Positions 2,216-59,152 of a stretch of 64,000 nucleotides of DNA are shown here, one piece after another (the first letter of the stretch is position 1; each line of letters starts with the position of its first letter). The notes under the pieces were generated by a model. It was not told the origin of the DNA, searched no databases, and saw nothing but the letters and a program-made list of their open reading frames with translations. Position numbers and translations under genes: made by a program. Origin of the DNA: Candidatus Tayloriibacteriota bacterium (GTDB taxonomy: Bacteria; Patescibacteriota; Minisyncoccia; Phycocordibacterales; PALSA-1337); assembly GCA_943350765.1 (NCBI GenBank), contig CALRAJ010000001.1, positions 16,873-80,872 of the forward strand, written 5' to 3'.

Positions 2216-3172
2216 ATGAAAAAAGTTTTATTATCAGGAATACAGCCTACAGGTCGACCACATATTGGCAATTATTTTGGTGCGATGAAGCAGTGGGTTG
2301 ATCTGCAGACAAGTCAGCCAGATACAGAGAAGTTTTTTATGATTGCCGACTATCATGCACTCAACTTTATTCAAAACAATGAAGAATTGAAGCAGAATAT
2401 CCTCGATGTTGTGCTGGACTATTTAGCTATTGGTCTCGATCCAAAGCAGTCAGCGATTTTTAAACAGTCAGATGTCTCGGCGCATACTGAGCTGGCGTGG
2501 ATTTTTGATACTATTACTACCATGCCGTATTTGATGCGTGCCCACGCATTCAAAGACGCCGAAGTAAAAAATAAGGAGATAGGGGTGGGGACTTTCAACT
2601 ACCCAATGCTCATGTCAGCAGACATTTTACTATATGACACAACTGTAGTACCCGTAGGTCAGGACCAGAAACAACATATCGAATATGCTCGTGATACTGC
2701 GGAAAAGTTTAATCGTATTTTTGGTGAGACATTTGTGTTGCCTGAAGCACTGATAATGAAGGAAGTGGCTGTCGTACCAGGTACTGATGGTCAGAAAATG
2801 AGTAAAAGCTATGGCAACACAATACCTCTTTTTGCTACCGATGAAGAGATTAGGAAAGCAGTGATGAGTATTGTGACGGATTCATCTGGCAGTATTCCGA
2901 AAAATGTCTACGAGATCCATAAACTTTTTCGTTCTACTACGGAGCTCGATGTTTTATACAAAGAGAAGTCAGGCAAGTACAAAGACTTAAAAGACGCCTT
3001 GATTGCTGATATTTCTGCATTTATAAAACCGCTACGGGAGAGACGGGAAGAGTTCGCTAAAAATAAAGATGCTGTATTAGCTATTCTCAAAGCTGGTGGA
3101 GAAAAGGCAAAGGCCAAGGCACAAGCAAAGATAGAGGTGGTGCGAGAAAAAATCGGGGTAAGGTTGTATTAG
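2216..3172 (+). CDS. trpS: tryptophanyl-tRNA synthetase
   Basis: HIGH-type motif (PHIGNYFG) and a KMSKS motif are present, and the size fits class I TrpRS. The ORF opens at 2165, but the MKKVLL start at 2216 matches TrpRS N-termini and follows a TGATATACT -10 box. Confidence 0.9.
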   Translation: MKKVLLSGIQPTGRPHIGNYFGAMKQWVDLQTSQPDTEKFFMIADYHALNFIQNNEELKQNILDVVLDYLAIGLDPKQSAIFKQSDVSAHTELAWIFDTITTMPYLMRAHAFKDAEVKNKEIGVGTFNYPMLMSADILLYDTTVVPVGQDQKQHIEYARDTAEKFNRIFGETFVLPEALIMKEVAVVPGTDGQKMSKSYGNTIPLFATDEEIRKAVMSIVTDSSGSIPKNVYEIHKLFRSTTELDVLYKEKSGKYKDLKDALIADISAFIKPLRERREEFAKNKDAVLAILKAGGEKAKAKAQAKIEVVREKIGVRLY

Positions 3173-3175
3173 TTA

Positions 3176-3286
3176 GGTTTTTCAAAATAGTCCTTTTTAA
3201 GGGTACGAGTATTTCCCTGGTAGGAAATTTCTGAAGTCTCGGCTACACGCCTGCGAACCCCCTTAAAAAGGACTATTTTGAAAAAC
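3176..3286. repeat. short divergent copy of the MITE-like palindromic element (core CGAGTATTTCCCTGGTAGGAAATTTCTGAAGTCTCGGCTAC)
   Basis: The arms TTTTCAAAATAGTCCTTTTTAAGGG / CCCTTAAAAAGGACTATTTTGAAAA form an inverted repeat. The core is shared with the other copies. Confidence 0.55.
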
Positions 3287-3322
3287 CTTTGTGGTGGTGG
3301 AGGTAGGTGAGAAGTTAAAAAT

Positions 3323-5140
3323 ATGTCCAAAAAAACAACAAAAGAACAATTTGGCTCTGTTTTAGAACTTTTACGCAATAGTAAGCGTCTCTTGAGGCTG
3401 GTATGGAAAGAGCAAAGAAAAATGATACTGATCATTGTTCTATTATCCCTAGGTATTTCTCTAATGCCTTTTTTGAAAAGCGGAGTACTCGCTCTTTTGG
3501 TAAATAATCTAACCAATATAAATACTGTGGGTACTGGAGCTATTACTTGGCTCTCAGTGCTTGCTGTGATGATGATTTTGGTACCAGAGTTGCTATATGG
3601 TCTAAAGAGTTATGTTGATCGTTGGTTCAGTATTGATTTACAAGAAAGTTTTGAAATCTTCTTTATTTCTAAAAAATCGACAATGGATATTGCGACCATA
3701 GAGGATCCAAAGTTTAATGACATATTGAATACTTTACAGGAGAGAGGTGTGTGGCCAATGGTAAATATGGTAGAGGACATGTTTATGAATCTTCCAAACA
3801 TTCTGGGGGTCATCATTGCTTCTATTATATTGTACACATTTAGTCCTTGGCTTTTTATAATCATTACAATTGCAGTGTTACCTAGAGTATTTGTTGAAGC
3901 GATATACGGTGATGGTGTATACGGCATATATCACGCTGAGGCATCGGTGCGAAGGCGTTTCTGGGCTTTCAGAGATTATTTTATGGATAAAAGAGATTTG
4001 ACAGAAATGAAGTTGTTTCAAAGTACTGGTTATTTTATCAAGATAATTGCTGATATTTTTCATTCGTTCAATACAAAACAAAAAACTGTCGAAAGAAAAA
4101 GAATTTTTTGGCATATGGTCGCACTTTTGGTAACGGGTGGAGCGATAGGTGGGGGTGTCATACTGGTGATTCGTAGTGTGCTCTCTGGTGAGACAGAAGT
4201 GGGGACAATGATTTTTGTAATTTCAGCTATTATTGAGCTAGAGTGGGCATTATCAGGATTTTTGATGAATTTGGCTAAACAATATAAAAACAGTTTGTTT
4301 GTATCTGATTTATTTAGGATACTGGATATAAAGTCAAATCTACCAAAGGCAAGTAATCCCTTTAAAATAAATCCAACTCAAACACCAAGAATTGTTTTTG
4401 ATGATGTTTCTTTTTCTTATCCTGGGACAAAACGAGAGGTGCTTTCTCATCTTTCTTTTACTATAGAGTCTGGAGAAAAGCTGGCACTGGTGGGTGTAAA
4501 TGGTGCTGGCAAGACTACTTTGGTAAAGCTACTCTGCCGAGTGTATGACCCTACTATTGGAAGGATATTGATAGATGGAAGGGATTTACGAGATCTGGAT
4601 ATACATAGCTGGCTTCATACACTCGGAGTACTTTTTCAAGATTACACTTCCTATCAAATGAAAGCTTCAGAGTCGATTGCATTAGGTAGAACCAGTGAGC
4701 CGTTTGACATGGATCGGGTAAAATGGGCAGCACAGGGAAGTGAGGCATCGGAGTTTATAGATGAATGGGAAAATGGATATGAACAGATGTTGGGTAAACA
4801 GTTTGAGGGTGGTATTGATCCATCAAAGGGTCAGCTTCAAAAGCTCGCTCTGGCTCGAGTGTTGTATCGTAATCCTGCTGTGCTTATTCTCGATGAGCCG
4901 ACGGCCTCCGTGGATGCCGAGTCCGAAGCAAAGATTTTTGCTAGGCTAGAGGCTTTACCAAAAGACAAGACAGTGATTCTTATTTCCCATCGCTTTTCGA
5001 CAGTGCGTACAGCAGACAAGATACTAGTTTTGAAAGACGGTATGGTGCATGAGCTGGGGTCGCATACTGAGCTGATCAAAAAAGCTGGGACCTATGCTGA
5101 AATATTTAAATTGCAAGCAAAGGGGTACAATACCGAGTAG
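3323..5140 (+). CDS. ABC transporter, fused permease/ATP-binding protein (exporter type)
   Basis: An N-terminal 6-TM domain is followed by Walker A (GVNGAGKTTL), an ABC signature-like motif (SKGQLQKLALA) and Walker B (LILDEPTASVD). Confidence 0.85.
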   Translation: MSKKTTKEQFGSVLELLRNSKRLLRLVWKEQRKMILIIVLLSLGISLMPFLKSGVLALLVNNLTNINTVGTGAITWLSVLAVMMILVPELLYGLKSYVDRWFSIDLQESFEIFFISKKSTMDIATIEDPKFNDILNTLQERGVWPMVNMVEDMFMNLPNILGVIIASIILYTFSPWLFIIITIAVLPRVFVEAIYGDGVYGIYHAEASVRRRFWAFRDYFMDKRDLTEMKLFQSTGYFIKIIADIFHSFNTKQKTVERKRIFWHMVALLVTGGAIGGGVILVIRSVLSGETEVGTMIFVISAIIELEWALSGFLMNLAKQYKNSLFVSDLFRILDIKSNLPKASNPFKINPTQTPRIVFDDVSFSYPGTKREVLSHLSFTIESGEKLALVGVNGAGKTTLVKLLCRVYDPTIGRILIDGRDLRDLDIHSWLHTLGVLFQDYTSYQMKASESIALGRTSEPFDMDRVKWAAQGSEASEFIDEWENGYEQMLGKQFEGGIDPSKGQLQKLALARVLYRNPAVLILDEPTASVDAESEAKIFARLEALPKDKTVILISHRFSTVRTADKILVLKDGMVHELGSHTELIKKAGTYAEIFKLQAKGYNTE

Positions 5141-5171
5141 TCAAAAGTCGAAAGTACGGAGTTGAAAGTGG

Positions 5172-5209
5172 AGAAATCCCCGAATTTTCAGTAGAAAATT
5201 CGGGGATTT
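5172..5209. repeat. hairpin module of the CCCCGAAAAT family (AAATCCCCGAATTTTC-AGTAG-AAAATTCGGGGATTT)
   Basis: A perfect inverted repeat is read from the sequence. Related copies lie at 31932-31976 and 54664-54693, with a variant at 9664-9710. Confidence 0.5.
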
Positions 5210-5228
5210 ATGGCAAAAGTAGGTAAAA

Positions 5229-5290
5229 ATGAGATTGGCTCTGCAGAGCCAATCTCATCGGCTAAACTCCGTGCTTAGCCGATGAGATTT
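5229..5290. repeat. composite hairpin module TGGCTCTGCAGAGCCA + GGCTAAAC-N-GCTTAGCC
   Basis: Two adjacent perfect palindromes. The same two-part module recurs at 9598-9657, 19093-19150, 45441-45497, 50921-50962 and 54702-54755. Confidence 0.55.
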
Positions 5291-5356
5291 ATAGGTAGAT
5301 AAGGTTAAATAACTAGTGCATCTACGCTATAGCGTAGATGCACTAGTTTAGGTTAC

Positions 5357-5497
5357 TCCAAATTACAAAATACCTTTCTTAGCATATCTTTTTGAAAGCA
5401 CGAGTATTTCTTTGGTAAAAAATCTCTCAAGTCTCAGCTACCCGCTTCCGAAGTCTTTCAAAAAGATACGCCTGCGACGGTATTTGGTAATTTGGTG
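5357..5497. repeat. MITE-like palindromic element, short variant in reverse orientation with a central deletion
   Basis: The termini are CCAAATTACAAAATACC...GGTATTTGGTAATTTGG, and the core CACGAGTATTTCTTTGGTAAAAAATCTCTCAAGTCTCAGCTAC is shared with the other copies. Confidence 0.6.
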
Positions 5498-5525
5498 TAG
5501 GTCGGTATTTTCTTTTGTGGATATA

Positions 5526-9551: not shown

Positions 9552-9801
9552 ATGTTCAATCCTACCTAAACAGTCGAAAAACTCATTTTTTGGCAAAAAT
9601 GAGAATGGCTCTGTAGAGCCATTCTCATCGGCTAAACCCCGTGTTTAGCCGATGAAAACGGGGATTTGTATTCCACTAAATTTTCTACTGAAAATTTAGT
9701 GGAATAAACCTGTATTTTTTGTTAAAAAAACCTGTAGATGTATACTGTAATGTGTGGTCGTACGGTTGTGGTATACATGGCAAATGGTGCTGTTTTTTAA
9801 A

Positions 9802-15333: not shown

Positions 15334-15543
15334 CCACCAAATTACCAAATACCTTTCTAGGCATATCTTTTTGAAGCCTATCGGTTAGGGATAGGCATCT
15401 GTAGACGAAGCCCTTGTATTTTCTTGCTAGAAAATCTCTCAAGTCTCAGCTACCGTCTGGCGCCGTCTACAGGGACACATCATCTAAACGATGTGAAAGT
15501 CTTTCAAAAAGATACGCCTGCGACGGTATTTCGTAATTTGGGG
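15334..15543. repeat. MITE-like palindromic element, full length, reverse orientation
   Basis: The termini are CCACCAAATTACC...GGTATTTCGTAATTTGGGG. It contains a CTGTAGACG...CGTCTACAG inner palindrome and the conserved core. Confidence 0.7.
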
Positions 15544-15715
15544 TACTATACTGAAGTAATCATTTTTTAGATTTTGTGAATTTTTAATTGAAAACCGCAC
15601 ACTGTTGGTGTGAGTTCGTGGCTTATCACTTGTGAGTCTAGGTAGTGTCGAGATGAATCGAAGATATACTTGGTCATCAGGTTCAGCTATCATTCTTCTA
15701 CAAACATAGTCCACT

Positions 15716-18664: not shown

Positions 18665-18687
18665 AACATTCTTTCGTATTTGTTAAA

Positions 18688-18954
18688 TAAAGTTTAGCCT
18701 CGTCCTATCCCCGTAGCAAGCTATTCCCTCGGATTACCTCGGCGGGGTATTAGGCGAGGCATCCGCTTAGCGAGCAGTAGTCGTATGACTACATCAGGGT
18801 AAACTTTGTTGTAGTCATACGACTACTGCTCGCTCAATTGGAATTGAGCGGATGTAGAAGTGTCGGCTCCGCCGACCCCATCCTCATTCTTGCGGATTCA
18901 TCCCCGCGGCAAGCCGTCGGGGTATTCTCCACAATTGCAATAAAAAGCTCACAA
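18688..18954 (+). repeat. GC-rich highly structured element, copy A (a perfect 24 bp stem GCGAGCAGTAGTCGTATGACTACA/TGTAGTCATACGACTACTGCTCGC plus several CCCCG/CGGGG hairpins)
   Basis: GC content is far above its surroundings, and there is no ORF. An inverted, partly deleted second copy lies at 45586-45812. Confidence 0.6.
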
Positions 18955-19010
18955 ACCAAGCGTTGTGTGTGCAGGATTTGACCATGATGTTTTTTAGGTC
19001 GATGGCTCAC

Positions 19011-19050
19011 TGGTAATGATAAAAAAGCAGTGAGCCATCATAATTTTTTA
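19011..19050. repeat. hairpin GATGGCTCACTG...CAGTGAGCCATC flanking GC-rich element A
   Basis: An inverted repeat. A similar hairpin (GATGGCTCAGTG...CACTGAGCCAT) flanks copy B at about 45347-45388. Confidence 0.45.
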
Positions 19051-19181
19051 ATCAAAAATCGTTCACAAGAAGTCGTTTATGGTAAAAAGTCTAAATGGCT
19101 ATGTAGAGCCGTACTCAAAGGCTAAACACTAGTGTTTAGCCGTTTAATAGGGTATAGTCCAACCACTTTTATGACGGGTAC

Positions 19182-20768: not shown

Positions 20769-20771
20769 ATA

Positions 20772-21012
20772 CCCCAAATTACGAAATGCGTTGAAGGCGT
20801 ATCTTTTAAATGGACTTTCACATCAGTTAGATGATGTGTTCCTGTAGACGGCGCAAGGTGGGTAACCGAGACTTGAGAGATTTTCTAGCAAGAAAATACT
20901 CGTGTCCCGTCTACAGATGGTCTATTAGTTAGGAATAGACATCTGTGGACGATCTATCACTAACCGATAGACCTTTAAAAGATATGTCGAGAAAGTGTTT
21001 TGTAATTTGGGG
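20772..21012. repeat. MITE-like palindromic element, full length, + orientation
   Basis: The termini CCCCAAATTACGAAATGCG...TGTAATTTGGGG form inverted repeats. It contains a CTGTAGACGG...CCGTCTACAG inner palindrome and the conserved core GTAACCGAGACTTGAGAGATTTTCTAGCAAGAAAATACTCGTG. Confidence 0.75.
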
Positions 21013-21061
21013 TAAATTCTGCACAACCGCGTTAGTACAGACGGTGGTTTTTTATAAAATC

Positions 21062-24395: not shown

Positions 24396-24421
24396 TTATA
24401 GAGAATTTTATTAAAGTTTAT

Positions 24422-24622
24422 AAATCCCCGAACTTCGTTGAAGGTGTATCTTTATAAAGGACTTTCACATCGTTAGATGATGTGTTCCTGTAGACGGCGC
24501 CATGCGGGTAGACGAGACTGAGAAAAATTTCACCAGAAATTTATGAGAGCCCCGTCTACAGGTGCCTATCCCTAACCGATAGGCTTTATAAAGATATACC
24601 GAGAAAGAAGTTCGGGGATTTA
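24422..24622. repeat. MITE-like palindromic element, variant subfamily with termini AAATCCCCGAACTT...AAGTTCGGGGATTT
   Basis: It shares the internal arms (GTTGAAGGTGTATCTTTATAAAGGACTTTCACATC...) and the inner CTGTAGACGG...CCGTCTACAG palindrome. The core is partly replaced. Confidence 0.65.
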
Positions 24623-24672
24623 TTGTAGTACCCATTCCTCTGTTATTGTAGTCATGGCATAAAAAATAAAAA

Positions 24673-31409: not shown

Positions 31410-31820
31410 ATGGCAGACACACAAATCGGTACATCTCTCGAGGGGAAAAAAGTAATGTGGGTAGAGGACGATAATTTCCTCAGTGGACTTATTGGTAAAA
31501 AGCTTGCACATGAGAAGGCGATTCTTTTTAGTGCAAACAATGGTGAAGATGCTGTAGTGATGATAGAAAAAGAGCATCCAGATGTGCTTTTGTTGGATAT
31601 TTTGCTTCCAGGTATCACTGGTCTACAGGTACTTCAAAAGATAAAAAGCAATCCTACTACAAAGGATATTCCTGTACTTTTACTTTCAAACCTTGGTCAG
31701 AAAGCAGATATTGATAAAGGAGCACAGCTCGGGGCGGAAAAGTTTCTCATCAAAGCTACGCTGTCTCTCGATGAGATAGTACGAGAAGTAAAAAGTGTGA
31801 TTGCAAAAAAGACAGTATAA
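31410..31820 (+). CDS. single-domain response regulator (CheY-like receiver), orphan
   Basis: A REC domain with an acidic pocket (VEDD), the phospho-acceptor context LLLDILLPG, and LLSNLG / KFLIK motifs. There is no output domain and no adjacent kinase. Confidence 0.75.
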   Translation: MADTQIGTSLEGKKVMWVEDDNFLSGLIGKKLAHEKAILFSANNGEDAVVMIEKEHPDVLLLDILLPGITGLQVLQKIKSNPTTKDIPVLLLSNLGQKADIDKGAQLGAEKFLIKATLSLDEIVREVKSVIAKKTV

Positions 31821-31931
31821 TTTGGGGTATAAACCTAAACGGCTAAACACTAGTGTTTAGCCGTTTAAAGCTAGTACTAGAGCCGTATTTTAGCTCAAAG
31901 GCTCAACGGTGTTTATCGTTGAGCCTTTGAT

Positions 31932-45253: not shown

Positions 45254-45585
45254 GGGTAACTCGATAGCTAAAATTACATACCCAGAATTACGAAAGAGTA
45301 AGACCCGCGGCGAGTACGCCGCGGGCGGAACCGAGCATAAATCCATTCGATGGCTCAGTGCTTTTGTATAAAAACCACTGAGCCATTACTATTTTTATAC
45401 CAAAAATAGGTTAAAAATAGTATAAAAAGCAAAAATCAAATATGGCTCTGTATAGCCATACTCAAAGGCTAAACGCTAGCGTTTAGCCTTTGAGTATTTG
45501 TGGCATAAAGTCAAAACCGCCTGATAAGGCGGTTTTGACTAGAACATTCAGAAAACAAAATTCGCAGACATATTACTGCTGTTGC

Positions 45586-45812
45586 TTTTATTGCAATTGT
45601 GGAGAATTCCCCGACGGCTTGCCGCGGGGATGAATCCGCAAGAATGAGGATGAGGCTGGCGGAGCCGACACTTCTGCATCCGCTCAATTCCGATTGAGCG
45701 AGCAGTAGTCGTATGACTACAACAAAGTTTACCCTGTCGTCTCGCCTAATACCCCGCCGAGGTACTCCGAGGGGATAGCTTGCTACGGGTATAGGACGAG
45801 ACTAAACTTTAT
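45586..45812 (-). repeat. GC-rich structured element, copy B (inverted relative to copy A; missing the 5' arm of the long stem)
   Basis: Its reverse complement aligns with 18688-18954 along its length. There are scattered substitutions and an approximately 37 bp deletion. Confidence 0.6.
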
Positions 45813-46186: not shown

Positions 46187-46328
46187 ATATTTTATGTATT
46201 AAAATTAAATTATTATACTATTAAGCAAAGTACCGACCATTCTTAATACTAAATTATATACCTCAATATCATAAAAATATATACCGAATGTGGATAACTT
46301 AAATGAGTATCTGCTATAATGTGGTTTA

Positions 46329-46567
46329 CTCCAAATTACAAAATGCGTTGAAGGCGTATCTTTTAAATGGACTTTCACATCAGTTAGATGATGTGTTCCT
46401 GTAGACGGCGCAAGGTGGGTAACCGAGACTTGAGAGATTTTCTAGCAAGAAAATACTCGTGCCCCGTCTACAGGTGGTCTATTAGTTAGGAATAGACATC
46501 TGTGGACGATCTATCCCTAACCGATAGACCTTTAAAAGATATGCTGAGAAAGCAATTTGTAATTTGG
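46329..46567. repeat. MITE-like palindromic element, full length, + orientation, lying in the zwf 5' leader region
   Basis: The termini are CTCCAAATTACAAAATGCG...CAATTTGTAATTTGGGG. It carries the inner palindrome and the conserved core, and is about 96% identical to the copy at 20772-21012. Confidence 0.75.
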
Positions 46568-46577
46568 GGTAAATTAA

Positions 46578-50795: not shown

Positions 50796-51030
50796 TAATA
50801 GGGGTAGGTAGATATCAGATTTGAGAAGGATAAACGGTCAACGGCTCAATGGTTTAATAATAAAACCATTGAGCCGTTGTCGTGTTTTAGTCTAAACAAG
50901 CTAAAATCTAAACGGCTCTATATAGCCATTTTAATCGGCTAAACACGGGGTTTAGCCGATGGACTATATGTACCACAATTACAATAAAAATCCCGACTGA
51001 TGTGTCGGGGGTGCGGTCTTGCAGTGGGGA

Positions 51031-58756: not shown

Positions 58757-58938
58757 AAATAACTTTTACAATTTTGATTTAAAACAAAAGATAAACTCCG
58801 GTTTGTGTATCGTTTTTCTGCTAGTGGCTACATTTTGGGTAGTACTTCAGTACTCAATAGCAAAGGCTTACGATATCGAACATTCGATGTCAGGTAAAAA
58901 TGCCGAGAGGTATAAATTGATGATAGGTGAGTAAACTA

Positions 58939-59144
58939 CCCCAAATTACTAAATGCGTTGAAGGCGTATCTTTTAAATGGACTTTCACATCAGTAGATGA
59001 TGTGTTCCTGTAGACGGCGCCAGACGGGAGCCGAGACTTGAGAGATTTTCTAGCAAGAAAATACTCGTGCCCCGTCTACAGGTGTCTATCCCTAACCGAT
59101 AGACCTTTAAAAGATATGCCGAGAAAGCATTTGGTAATTTGGGG
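58939..59144. repeat. MITE-like palindromic element, full length, + orientation
   Basis: The termini are CCCCAAATTACTAAATGCG...CATTTGGTAATTTGGGG. It carries the inner palindrome and the conserved core. Confidence 0.75.
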
Positions 59145-59152
59145 TAAACTAG

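Follow-up and report, generated by a model that had tools for sequence, protein, structure and literature searches.

The two inverted repeats in the 64,000-nucleotide stretch of DNA analysed here as a whole (the window) are very probably non-autonomous, gene-less elements of the IS200/IS605 family, that is, PATEs (palindrome-associated transposable elements), the equivalents of MITEs in this family. On this reading the pair represents ordinary selfish DNA rather than a new RNA gene or an inversion switch, and the inverted placement of the copies at a distance of 26.6 kb is a chance outcome of two insertions. PATEs are already known as a kind of element; new here is another member, which documents gene-less elements of the IS200/IS605 type in Patescibacteria. 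By definition, PATEs lack inverted terminal repeats, carry similar near-terminal palindromes, cause no target duplication and are too short for a transposase, with terminal-only forms of ∼52 bp derived by deletion between the palindromes (PMC3119063). PATE-like elements also accompany ISGst elements (PMC10055086). A non-autonomous mobile element was among the options of an earlier, sequence-only reading of the same DNA, and it is this option that is upheld by the PATE architecture, by the hairpins that flank Y1 genes elsewhere and by the short, element-less spacers of relatives. Also, a match to a known IS family, one of the refuting outcomes named beforehand, was found.

Architecture of the repeat pair

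The segments 18687-18946 (+ strand) and 45586-45812 (- strand), which hold copies A and B, align as an inverted repeat with 94.7% identity (215/227), differing by 12 substitutions and one 32-nt indel. The sequence-only reading had recognised both inverted copies, and also a perfect stem whose 5' arm is missing from copy B; in copy A this stem measures 25 bp (18769-18793 paired with 18810-18834, loop 18794-18809). The CCCCG/CGGGG, GTCGGC/GCCGAC and CATCCGCT/AGCGGATG helices described as nested in copy A were all located, and the reported lack of an ORF stands as well, the copies of the element being 221-253 nt long, too short for a transposase, with only mechanical ORFs of 47 and 58 aa listed. 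Other details required correction. The deletion in copy B exists but comprises 32 nt by alignment rather than ∼37 bp, and the GC content is 51-52%, not ∼60%, over a background of 40%. The supposed inverted blocks of ∼460 bp dissolve, since colinear homology ends at 18946/45586 and the flanking modules are separate dispersed repeats. Within the 64-kb window no copies other than A and B were found; these two are ∼5% divergent and give no sign of recent mobility.

Features of both copies are collected in Table 1. The top strand is the tnpA/tnpB-sense strand, assigned by homology from relatives that bear tnpA and tnpB, and on this basis the top strand of copy A is the minus strand of the window. 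Each copy carries two hairpins on the same strand, HP1 near the right end (RE) and HP2 near the left end (LE), so that the pattern CCCG-NN-GCAAGC-N(3-21)-CGGGG-WATT yields four matches against none expected. In HP1 of copy A the bulge is expanded by 19 nt and the TATT is a guide-like tetranucleotide. The inner stem of HP1 covaries (TAG/CTA, TGG/CCA, CGG/CCG, CAG/CTG), and HP2 shows a compensatory change from CGG/CCG to CCG/CGG. Terminal inverted repeats are absent: compared with the right 30 nt in reverse complement, the left 30 nt agree at just 7 of 30 positions. Both copies have ATAAA at both borders, an arrangement that looks alike with or without a 5-bp target duplication. The TEM position of copy A is conserved in two autonomous elements described below (loci L195 and L103) and in MITE relatives, while the terminal ATAAA of copy B (45808-45812, minus strand) includes the stop codon, TAA (45809-45811), of the DUF4383 gene.

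Table 1. Features of the two element copies in window coordinates.
Feature	Position	Strand	Remarks
Copy A, gene-less IS200/IS605-type element (very probable PATE)	18687..18939	-	LE 18939, RE 18687; from repeat alignment and relatives
Copy B of the element	45592..45812	+	LE 45592, RE 45812; top strand is window plus strand
ATAAA on + (top strand TTTAT) beside copy A LE	18940..18944	-	Presumed target/TAM
ATAAA on + (TTTAT, top-strand 3' tip) of copy A	18687..18691	-	Presumed TEM, right cleavage site
TTTAT at LE flank of copy B	45587..45591	+	Presumed TAM
HP1, copy A, RE subterminal hairpin	18707..18751	-	ATCCCCG-TA-GCAAGC-...-CGGGG-TATT
HP2, copy A, LE subterminal hairpin, ATCCCCGCGGCAAGCCGTCGGGGTATT	18900..18926	-	Consensus and strand as HP1
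HP2, copy B	45605..45631	+	AATT in place of TATT after the hairpin (hairpin strand)
HP1, copy B	45748..45792	+	Reads ATACCCG..., one stem mismatch
Helix P1, copy A	18689-18696 with 18800-18807		Encloses HP1 (with P2); covaries in alignment A3
Helix P2, copy A	18697-18705 with 18753-18760		Encloses HP1 (with P1); covaries in alignment A3
P3 hairpin, GTCGGC-TCC-GCCGAC, conserved core	18862..18876		Covariation
P4, outer stem around HP2	18891-18896 with 18928-18933		TGCGGA/TCCGCA vs CGGTCA/TGACCG in relatives
Ins1, 32 nt, copy A only	18764..18795		Missing from copy B and from 14/14 A3 relatives
Ins2, 43 nt, both copies	18812..18854		Missing from 14/14 A3 relatives

A Y1 TnpA, supplied by another part of the genome or present only for a time, would recognise HP1 and HP2 on the single-stranded top strand and cut on the 3' side of TTTAT, in the left flank as well as at the right tip. 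The AATA (top strand) at the foot of each hairpin may serve as a DNA guide to the cleavage site by pairing with it. The element would thereby be excised as a circular ssDNA and then reinserted 3' of another TTTAT, in the 'peel and paste' manner worked out for IS608. Neither a Y1 transposase gene nor a TnpB gene was found within the 64-kb window. Insertion of the IS608 type favours the lagging-strand template. By GC skew the + strand is leading throughout the window, with no origin or terminus between the copies, and the top strand lies on the lagging-strand template in copy B only, which counts against the PATE reading.

Both copies sit between convergent genes, in the DsbA-helicase and DUF4383-MurE spacers. 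These spacers measure 517 and 555 nt here, versus 70 nt (L188-L190) and 57 nt (L185-L187) in genomes where the element is absent, and the terminator hairpin of the DUF4383-MurE spacer is conserved in L185-L187. The element-less Patescibacteria genomes are only 72-78% identical in protein, a divergence at which the insertion junction is not readable, and the extra spacer DNA here also holds other repeat modules besides the element. The element accounts for two oversized intergenic regions and for assembly breaks at those sites. Among the neighbouring modules, the X+Y module D2 is a direct + strand repeat (19084-19149 and 45431-45496, 80% identity) with six copies in all, some of them at other intergenic sites without the element core. 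The Y hairpin likewise recurs away from the core, and the one beside copy A is kept at the orthologous site of the core-less L188.

Autonomous relatives and distribution of the hairpins

At three loci (L195, L103 and L110) a gene for an IS200-type Y1 transposase lies between the hairpins. On a plasmid of Ca. Megaera polyxenophila (L195, NZ_CP104168.1, element at 2491-3030), one side reads AATAAA/agaa-ATCCCCGCCGCAAGCAGCGGGGTATT and is followed by tnpA on the opposite strand (2535-2978), the product of which matches Pfam Y1_Tnp with E = 1.6e-37; the other side reads CGCCGCAAGCGGCGGGGAATA...GATTAAA. The right end of this Megaera element, GGGGAATATACCCAAAAGAGATTAAA, has an identical counterpart at the right end of the gene-less copy L099, and the end of L088 is similar. 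The same layout is found in a Nitrospirales MAG (L103, CBDCWC010000003.1, about 1045-1573) and in Methanosarcina spelaei (L110, NZ_LMVP01000101.1, about 4466-5084), where tnpA was found by tblastn with the Megaera TnpA. The TnpA-homologous region of L103 is 69.5% identical, aligning in two overlapping pieces (possibly frameshifted), and TnpA identity in L110 is 44%. No autonomous element was found at any Patescibacteria locus examined.

Four haloarchaeal elements (L129-L132) encode a TnpB with the Pfam domains OrfB_IS605 and Cas12f1-like_TNB, and their LE consists of TT(T)AT(C), ∼12 nt and GAATA-CCCCG..CGGGG-ATGAA. In two of them, L129 and L132, the LE is the reverse complement of HP2 with equal spacing, the GCTTGA loop included (87% identity over 38 nt); L130 departs from this in the stem and L131 in the loop. 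For ISGst2 TnpB2, experiments have established TTTAT as the TAM (PMC10055086). A phage contig encoding TnpA and TnpB (L007) was considered as a partner and rejected, its ends being unrelated to the solitary hairpin about 5.5-6 kb off. The phage collection gave no match.

More than 160 loci, spread over the Archaea and numerous bacterial phyla, carry the same hairpin, in almost every case within a gene-less unit of 60-260 nt. A first hairpin pattern gave at least 120 genome-contig loci and a second one 49 metagenome loci, one of which (L133) is a chance match. The loci listed include Methanosarcina, Woesearchaeota, Anaerolineae, Nitrospirales, Gammaproteobacteria, Rickettsia, Synechococcus and Patescibacteria, among others, and multi-copy genomes are those of Methanosarcina spelaei, a Gracilibacteria MAG and an Anaerolineaceae MAG. 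Gene-less relatives of the element span 60-206 nt; about 20 loci have two hairpins spaced by 60-160 nt, and five (L139, L143, L175, L176 and L179) are single-hairpin minis. L122, with hairpins 809 nt apart, was considered as an IS200 and turned out to be two gene-less copies around an ordinary host gene. No recurring neighbour protein was found around the at least 120 loci.

The borders are also shared. Most loci have an xTAAA next to their hairpin motifs, most often ATAAA (42 of 74 hairpins downstream, 94 of 114 upstream), and the hairpins with an adjacent ATAAA are mostly followed by TATT (42 downstream, 88 upstream). The consensus CCCCG-NN-GCAAGC-NN-N-CGGGG with ATAAA-type borders is common to Methanosarcina, Rickettsiales, Nitrospirales, Chloroflexota and the CPR, and provides a simple search key for annotating such elements and locating their cognate Y1 transposases. 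L103, L195 and the gene-less L128 and L137 have ATAAA at one border and TTAAA at the other, each motif tracking the tetranucleotide by the adjacent hairpin (TATT vs AATT or AATA), which fits a pairing of guide and cleavage site and not a target-site duplication. A position-wise complement rule between guide and site accounts for TATT/ATAAA and AATT/TTAAA but fails for the Methanosarcina RE (TATG with ...ATCAAAG). The covariation of tetranucleotide and border motif amounts to a prediction of the guide/cleavage-site rule for a new subfamily.

Accessory helices and alternative explanations

Besides HP1 and HP2 the element contains four covarying helices, P1-P4, that the IS608 model does not demand, and these count against the PATE reading. 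In the alignment of relatives (A3), 93.1% of the cells of these helices are paired, vs 36-48% in slid controls, and 21 pairs are changed on both sides, vs 3-8 in the controls; the compensatory substitutions that the sequence-only reading had proposed to look for are thus present in relatives. A single compensatory change distinguishes the two copies and falls in P2 (18698 C/T with 18759 G/A), and P3 appears in relatives as GCGAGC/GCTCGC, AGCGGC/GCCGCT and GGCGGC/GCCGCC. The covariation of P1-P4 does not tell RNA from ssDNA. G-T wobble pairs favour the top strand in the close family (∼9 vs 2) and the other strand in the wider set (26 vs 11, or 19 vs 6 internal), where they are dominated by one P2 position that is a conserved T.G or a bulge. 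Copy A folds much more stably than shuffled sequences, whichever strand is taken (z = -10.4 and -9.8).

The 25-bp hairpin of copy A, judged from the alignment, is the product of two complementary lineage-specific insertions. Ins1 provides its 5' arm and also the 3' half of the CATCCGCT strand (18760-18767), the first four bases of which (CATC) are ancestral. Ins2 provides the 3' arm (18810-18834) except for the first two bases, and also a small hairpin, CTCAATT-GG-AATTGAG, and AGCGGATG. As the A3 relatives are without either arm, the hairpin is a lineage-specific addition to the family design. Copy B, which had been taken for a degenerate copy, is therefore nearer to that design than copy A.

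An element that is, or encodes, an independent structured RNA, either an omega-RNA/reRNA-like guide or an antisense or regulatory RNA, is an improbable explanation of these helices. IS200 of Salmonella offers a precedent for a regulatory or antisense RNA. In the omega-RNA variant, transcription of the top strand would run across the right end into the flanking DNA and a TnpB would use the RNA in trans, which has a precedent in PATEs, as these often encode omega-RNAs used in trans (Meers et al., PMC10055086). Covariation that extends past the transposase hairpins, the compensatory change between the two copies and the LE of related hairpin type in the haloarchaeal TnpB elements speak for such an RNA, but the helices could equally stabilise an ssDNA intermediate. 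TnpB is absent from the window and from the neighbourhood of ∼170 pattern-matched loci, that of L007 lying ∼6 kb off with other ends, and every autonomous relative found belongs to the tnpA-only IS200 type, which lacks an omega-RNA. The search of both copies against Rfam 15 that had been suggested (gathering score and E <= 10) matched no curated family; sub-threshold matches were spurious ones of miRNA-precursor models to the long hairpin only, the rest of the output being tRNAs. Copy A has no sigma-70-like promoter match. Over ∼160 loci, the orientation of the element relative to genes is unbiased (287 ORFs on the same strand vs 273 on the opposite one; 56 vs 61 for upstream genes). The proposal of a new structured ncRNA family is not supported in the form given, in view of this lack of orientation bias, of the missing promoter match and of the identity of the conserved parts, which are transposon ends. 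There is likewise a small chance that this PATE lineage is more than inert selfish DNA, its four extra helices, retained even between the two copies of the window, reflecting a transcribed structured RNA (an omega-RNA-like guide, or an antisense RNA that regulates in trans), or that it is propagated in Patescibacteria by an enzyme other than a resident Y1 transposase, conceivable because no partner was found at any CPR locus. Were this the case, the near-invariant hairpin, common to Archaea and a dozen bacterial phyla, would mark a successful, horizontally spreading superfamily of ssDNA elements, undescribed as such.

It is very unlikely that the inverted copies are recombination sites flipping the 26.6-kb segment, be it through a dedicated recombinase or as a homologous-recombination switch. 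Inverted copies of 227 nt and such identity would be enough for occasional RecA-dependent inversion, but the 12 substitutions and the indel between them argue against frequent exchange. The orientation of the segment in assemblies, proposed as a check, was examined and is single in all: DsbA adjoins the helicase in 5/5 contigs with an exact DsbA, and among the six contigs with the exact DUF4383 protein the MurE ligase neighbour is kept in L001 and in three similar places, the contigs of L002 and L003 ending before the gene next to DUF4383. With one gene order in every informative assembly, and with no recombinase gene noticed beside either copy in the gene tables viewed, the suggested inversion is not sustained; the same family, moreover, occurs as single copies at more than 160 unrelated loci. 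Still less credible is that the repeats are not IS200/IS605 derivatives at all, being instead REP/BIME sequences kept by a RAYT, or a 3'-UTR stabiliser or terminator of the host. RAYTs, the REP-associated Y1 transposases, are also Y1 enzymes working on hairpins. Also, the copies of the window start at, or 22 nt past, a stop codon on the sense strand of the gene and are for this reason probably co-transcribed as 3' UTR. REPs, however, are of 20-40 nt with a GTAG head and occur in inverted pairs, unlike the units of 60-260 nt described here, whose ends are defined and whose two hairpins point the same way, and in the autonomous relatives tnpA stands between same-strand hairpins, as in IS200. The random orientation relative to neighbouring genes argues against a cis element, as does the native terminator of the DUF4383 gene, which lies past the element and is kept in element-less genomes. 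A sense-strand 3'-UTR module, considered because a stop codon precedes both copies of the window and 14 of the first 20 close cases, was rejected when the full count proved unbiased. For genome annotation, one candidate 'new ncRNA' and one candidate 'invertible segment' are thereby removed, the pair being assigned to gene-less IS200/IS605 elements.

Comparison with known systems

The PATEs of Haloquadratum walsbyi and the PATE-like elements of Geobacillus stearothermophilus are gene-less and without inverted terminal repeats, as are the elements described here. Both they (PMC3119063, PMC10055086) and the present family include terminal-only minis formed by deletion between the palindromes, and have other small repeats nested inside. 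They differ from the present family in host, here Patescibacteria, and in the hairpin consensus, which here spans both domains; in addition, the window subfamily has the four extra covarying helices and the two private insertions.

The tnpA-bearing L195, L103 and L110 resemble the window element in hairpin sequence, in strand relationship and in the ATAAA at the RE border, and the RE hairpin of L103, ATCCCCGCCGCAAGCGGACGGGGTATT, recurs without change as HP1 or HP2 in several CPR copies. They differ by carrying a gene for a Y1 transposase of 145-147 aa. On the LE side, the bacterial L195 and L103 have TTAAA with a guide-like AATT or AATA, whereas the window element has ATAAA with TATT. In these two, 2-4 nt separate the RE hairpin from the border; the RE hairpin of the window element is wrapped in P1/P2.

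IS608 of Helicobacter pylori has an LE composed of cleavage site, spacer, guide tetranucleotide and hairpin, and an RE composed of guide, hairpin, spacer and cleavage site. The window element has the same layout, with imperfect hairpins of a CCCC...GGGG stem and one extrahelical base on the 3' side in both cases; IS608 inserts 3' of a fixed target of 4-5 nt without duplication, and the window element is presumed to do likewise. The target/TEM pair is TTAC/TCAA in IS608 vs a presumed TTTAT/TTTAT here, and the hairpin sequence also differs. While IS608 carries tnpA and tnpB, the window element is gene-less, and its guide-site pairing is inferred from covariation only. IS1341-type elements have an omega-RNA at the RE. 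Those of haloarchaeal plasmids differ from the window element in encoding TnpB and, in L131 and L132, in an RE hairpin and tip unlike the HP1 domain; they resemble it at the LE, which in L129 and L132 corresponds to HP2 at an equal distance from TTTAT(C).

The two window copies and their surroundings

Both copies of the repeat (copy A on the minus strand, copy B on the plus strand) are PATEs, gene-less elements of IS200/IS605 type, in every defining feature tested, target duplication at copies A and B and a cognate transposase left aside. PATEs carry no genes, inverted terminal repeats or target duplications, and their near-terminal palindromes, similar between the two ends, are kin to the palindromes of IS605-type transposons (PMC3119063). 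PATE-like elements have been described in Geobacillus by Meers et al. (PMC10055086).

The inverted repeat recognized in the sequence-only reading is present (18687-18946, plus strand, versus 45586-45812, minus strand), with 215 of 227 positions identical (94.7%) in a global alignment and one gap, in copy B, of 32 nt instead of about 37. GC content is 51-52% rather than the proposed 60%. No third copy was found in the window, either by sensitive blastn with copy A or by a hairpin search allowing 3 mismatches. The 460-bp blocks previously taken as a single inverted repeat break down into separate parts: colinear similarity stops at 18946/45586, the adjoining X+Y module (family D2, six copies) is repeated in direct orientation, on the plus strand, and occurs without the core at further intergenic sites, and the Y hairpin next to copy A is kept at an orthologous core-less site (locus L188).

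Each copy contains two same-strand hairpins (HP1 and HP2) with the consensus ATCCCCG-NN-GCAAGC-(3 or 21 nt)-CGGGG-TATT, a pattern matched four times in the window versus zero expected. ATAAA occurs at both borders, and terminal inverted repeats were not found, the termini agreeing at 7 of 30 positions. Both copies lie between convergent genes, copy A starting 22 nt past the stop of a UvrD/PD-(D/E)XK helicase gene and copy B exactly on the stop codon, TAA, that ends a DUF4383 gene. Downstream of copy B, an intrinsic-terminator-like hairpin (CAAAACCGCC-ttatca-GGCGGTTTTG) is kept in the element-less loci L185-L187, directly after the DUF4383 gene, indicating that the PATE is placed here between stop codon and terminator; copy B is probably transcribed as the 3' UTR of that gene.

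On both strands, folding of copy A surpasses that of shuffled sequences by about 10 standard deviations, and copy A forms a perfect 25-bp hairpin whose 5' arm is missing from copy B. Relative to the aligned relatives, copy A contains two private insertions, Ins1 and Ins2, that are mutually complementary and together form this long hairpin, which thus lies outside the family design, so that copy B is not simply "degenerate", as had been suggested. Most likely, the hairpin either stems from a template switch that duplicated Ins2 in inverted form or retains an arm lost by copy B.

Coordinates of the PATE copies, their parts and other repeats in the window
Feature	Position	Remark
Copy A	18687-18939	minus strand
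HP1 of copy A	18707-18751	hairpin consensus match
Ins1	18764-18795	copy A only; private insertion
25-bp hairpin arms	18769-18793, 18810-18834	copy A
Ins2	18812-18854	copies A and B; private insertion
HP2 of copy A	18900-18926	hairpin consensus match
Terminator-like hairpin	45512-45537	downstream of copy B
Copy B	45592-45812	plus strand
TIR-type repeat	5334-5499	
TIR-type repeat	15335-15545	
TIR-type repeat	20770-21018	1.8 kb from copy A; direct repeat of 46327-46575, 96% identical
TIR-type repeat	24420-24623	
TIR-type repeat	46325-46576	0.5 kb from copy B
TIR-type repeat	58932-59146	
X/Y hairpin pair	2054-2119	
X/Y hairpin pair	5222-5285	
X/Y hairpin pair	9594-9659	
X/Y hairpin pair	19084-19149	
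X/Y hairpin pair	31805-31870	
X/Y hairpin pair	45431-45496	
X/Y hairpin pair	50901-50966	
X/Y hairpin pair	54697-54756	

Gene-less and gene-bearing relatives

At least 120 matches to the hairpin pattern were found in contigs representing one genome per species, and 49 metagenome contigs match a second pattern specific for the HP1 side. Hosts among the matches listed include Methanosarcina (many, often at contig ends), Woesearchaeota, Anaerolineae, Nitrospirales, Gammaproteobacteria, Rickettsia, Synechococcus, Verrucomicrobiota and Patescibacteria, including Gracilibacteria and Saccharibacteria; this breadth of taxa with one hairpin consensus, and Patescibacteria as a host, are mildly notable. 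One of the 49 metagenome contigs, L133, was discarded as fortuitous, its match lying in GC-rich coding sequence. Where whole units are readable they share a plan of ATAAA, an optional variable stem, hairpin 1, core, hairpin 2, TATTC, about 6-20 nt and (A/T)TAAA, ATAAA being the commonest motif adjoining the hairpins. Units measure 60-260 nt and, among the matches listed, the two hairpins lie 60-160 nt apart in about 20 loci; no recurring neighbour protein was found among the matched loci listed. Units of about 180 nt come closest to the window copies (L134, L142, L148, L151, L155, L160, L174, L107 and others).

Five metagenome loci (L139, L143, L175, L176, L179) hold single-hairpin minis of about 60 nt, apparently left by deletions that joined HP1 to HP2. 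Small extra insertions occur within the hairpins of L148, L160, L173 and the second of the two copies in L122 (4760-4870 and 5545-5720). These forms echo the "terminal-only" PATEs and nested small repeats of Haloquadratum, terminal-only forms of about 52 bp having been attributed to deletion between the two palindromes (PMC3119063). Also, the metagenome contig pairs L155/L168 and L160/L173, one of which has an identical element as well, have a common right-end (RE) flank and wholly different sequence right past the ATAAA of the left end (LE); this switch could mean that the element is a site of rearrangement or recombination, or that strains differ in gene content. In one Parcubacteria genome (L128, ~5105-5345, = L162) a 15-nt direct repeat, ATTAAAGATAAAGGA, brackets the element, with one copy in the left flank and the other at the right end, which falls outside the prediction of simple insertion 3' of a pentanucleotide. 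A gene-less copy (L194, 3003-3135; AATAAA...ATCCTCGCGGCAAGCTACGAGGTATT...CGCAGCAAGCTGCGGGGAATC...GATTGAA) is present, unannotated, on 51 Piscirickettsia salmonis plasmids, most of those sequenced from this fish pathogen, among IS30, IS6 and IS3 transposase genes.

Autonomous forms were found in three loci. In a plasmid of Ca. Megaera polyxenophila (L195), one side reads AATAAA, then agaa-ATCCCCGCCGCAAGCAGCGGGGTATT, followed by a 147-aa gene on the opposite strand and by CGCCGCAAGCGGCGGGGAATA-tacccaaaaga-GATTAAA; the product matches Pfam Y1_Tnp (IS200-like transposase, E = 1.6e-37). In tblastn searches with this protein, the same arrangement was recovered in a Nitrospirales MAG (L103; TnpA identity 69.5%, in two overlapping pieces, so that a frameshift is possible) and in Methanosarcina spelaei (L110, 44%). 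The gene-less L099 (labelled Rickettsia typhi MAG) has exactly the Megaera right end, GGGGAATATACCCAAAAGAGATTAAA, and the Rickettsia endosymbiont copy L088 has a similar end. L195 has a second, divergent IS200-type tnpA (3712-4149), 31% identical to the first, at whose element ends the CCCCG...GCAAGC hairpin was not seen; both genes lie amid Tn3-family transposase gene fragments (3137-3637, 4236-5036), which suggests insertion into a Tn3-family transposase gene.

Kinship extends to tnpB-bearing elements. Copy A matches haloarchaeal replicons at HP2 (blastn against plasmids, 87% over 38 nt), where an HP2-type hairpin forms the left end of TnpB elements. Two tnpB genes are intact, in L131 (annotated TnpB-family protein) and L132 (Pfam OrfB_IS605 and Cas12f1-like_TNB); L129 has a 74-aa N-terminal TnpB remnant and L130 no adjacent TnpB gene. 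Read along the TnpB-sense strand, this end consists of TT(T)AT(C), a stretch of about 12 nt and GAATA-CCCCG..CGGGG-ATGAA, with the same TTTAT-to-hairpin spacing as window HP2. L129 and L132 have a GCTTGA loop in common, L131 a different loop and L130 a variant stem.

Element-free sites and putative mobility

Both sites are free of the element in related Patescibacteria genomes with the same flanking genes: the DUF4383-MurE ligase spacer measures 57 nt versus 555 nt here (DUF4383 78% identical; terminator hairpin kept) and the DsbA-helicase spacer 70 nt versus 517 nt (DsbA 72% identical), the genomes being too diverged for base-by-base reading of the junctions and the extra window DNA also holding other repeat modules.

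In all autonomous and TnpB cases the ATCCCCG reading and the transposase or TnpB gene lie on opposite strands, which assigns the top (tnpA/tnpB-sense) strand to the window minus strand in copy A and the plus strand in copy B, HP2 being the left-end and HP1 the right-end hairpin. GC skew is positive throughout, so that the top strand is on the lagging-strand template in copy B only, which says little with two copies. The left end of IS608 is ordered as cleavage site, spacer, guide tetranucleotide and hairpin, the right end as guide, hairpin, spacer and cleavage site, and the window element has the same layout. By analogy, a Y1 HUH transposase acting in trans would take the element through excision and insertion as single-stranded DNA. 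It would bind the top strand at HP2 and HP1 and make its cuts 3' of TTTAT, one in the left flank and one at the right tip, with AATA at each hairpin foot as putative DNA guide. TTTAT is the transposon-adjacent motif (TAM) of ISGst2 TnpB2 (Meers et al., PMC10055086). In L103, L195, L128 and L137 the border motifs are unequal (ATAAA at RE, TTAAA at LE) and track the hairpin-adjacent tetranucleotide, ATAAA with TATT and TTAAA with AATT or AATA. Over all hairpins, TATT is paired with ATAAA in 42/53 downstream and 88/100 upstream cases, and AATT with TTAAA in 3/4. This pattern fits guide/cleavage-site pairing and not target duplication, yet the Methanosarcina right end falls outside the simple guide rule, which is therefore only suggestive.

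Compensatory substitutions, named in the sequence-only reading as a check on the helices, were found in an alignment of 16 relatives: the pairing frequency over 44 proposed pairs is 93.1% versus 36-48% in slid controls, 21 versus 3-8 pairs are changed on both sides, and 0 of 500 shuffles reached the observed covariation score. Even copies A and B show one compensatory change relative to each other, in P2. This excess implies that helices P1-P4 (P1/P2 around HP1, P3 in the core, P4 around HP2) are constrained beyond the transposase hairpins. They may stabilise the single-stranded DNA intermediate or represent regulatory structures left over from the parent IS; that they specify an RNA is less likely. 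As to which strand folds, G-T wobble pairs lean to the top strand in the close family (about 9 versus 2) and to the other strand in a wider set (26 versus 11), in which one conserved P2 position dominates. Over about 160 loci there is no orientation bias relative to genes (long ORFs 287 on the same and 273 on the opposite strand), which speaks against a role as sense-strand RNA within host mRNAs, and the new RNA family once envisaged finds on the element only sub-threshold Rfam matches to miRNA precursors, in the long hairpin, the window's Rfam matches being two tRNAs. An omega-RNA locus was rejected for want of TnpB, neither Y1 transposase nor TnpB being encoded within the 64-kb window, and a REP/BIME assignment failed as well. 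Inversion of the intervening 26.6 kb was likewise rejected, all informative contigs having one gene order: DsbA is beside the helicase in 5/5 contigs with the exact DsbA protein, and the MurE ligase neighbour is kept with the exact DUF4383 protein in L001 and three similar contigs, two further such contigs stopping short of the neighbouring gene. That the element acts in trans as a structured RNA, or is mobilised by an unknown enzyme, appears improbable.

Other repeats in the window

A second, unrelated repeat family has six copies of about 165-250 nt (most 205-250) in the 64 kb, with terminal inverted repeats of about 40 nt (TACCCCAAATTAC...GTAATTTGGGGTA), and looks like a classical TIR-type MITE. 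Also, GC-rich short hairpin pairs, "X" (GGCTCTGTAGAGCC-type) and "Y" (GGCTAAAC-N6-GTTTAGCC), are dispersed among intergenic regions. The helicase-DsbA spacer has a Y hairpin (GGCCAAACACTAATGTTTGGCC, then a T-run) that is conserved in the PATE-less L188, suggesting that at least some X/Y hairpins are resident terminator-like or REP-like sequences and do not belong to the repeat under study.
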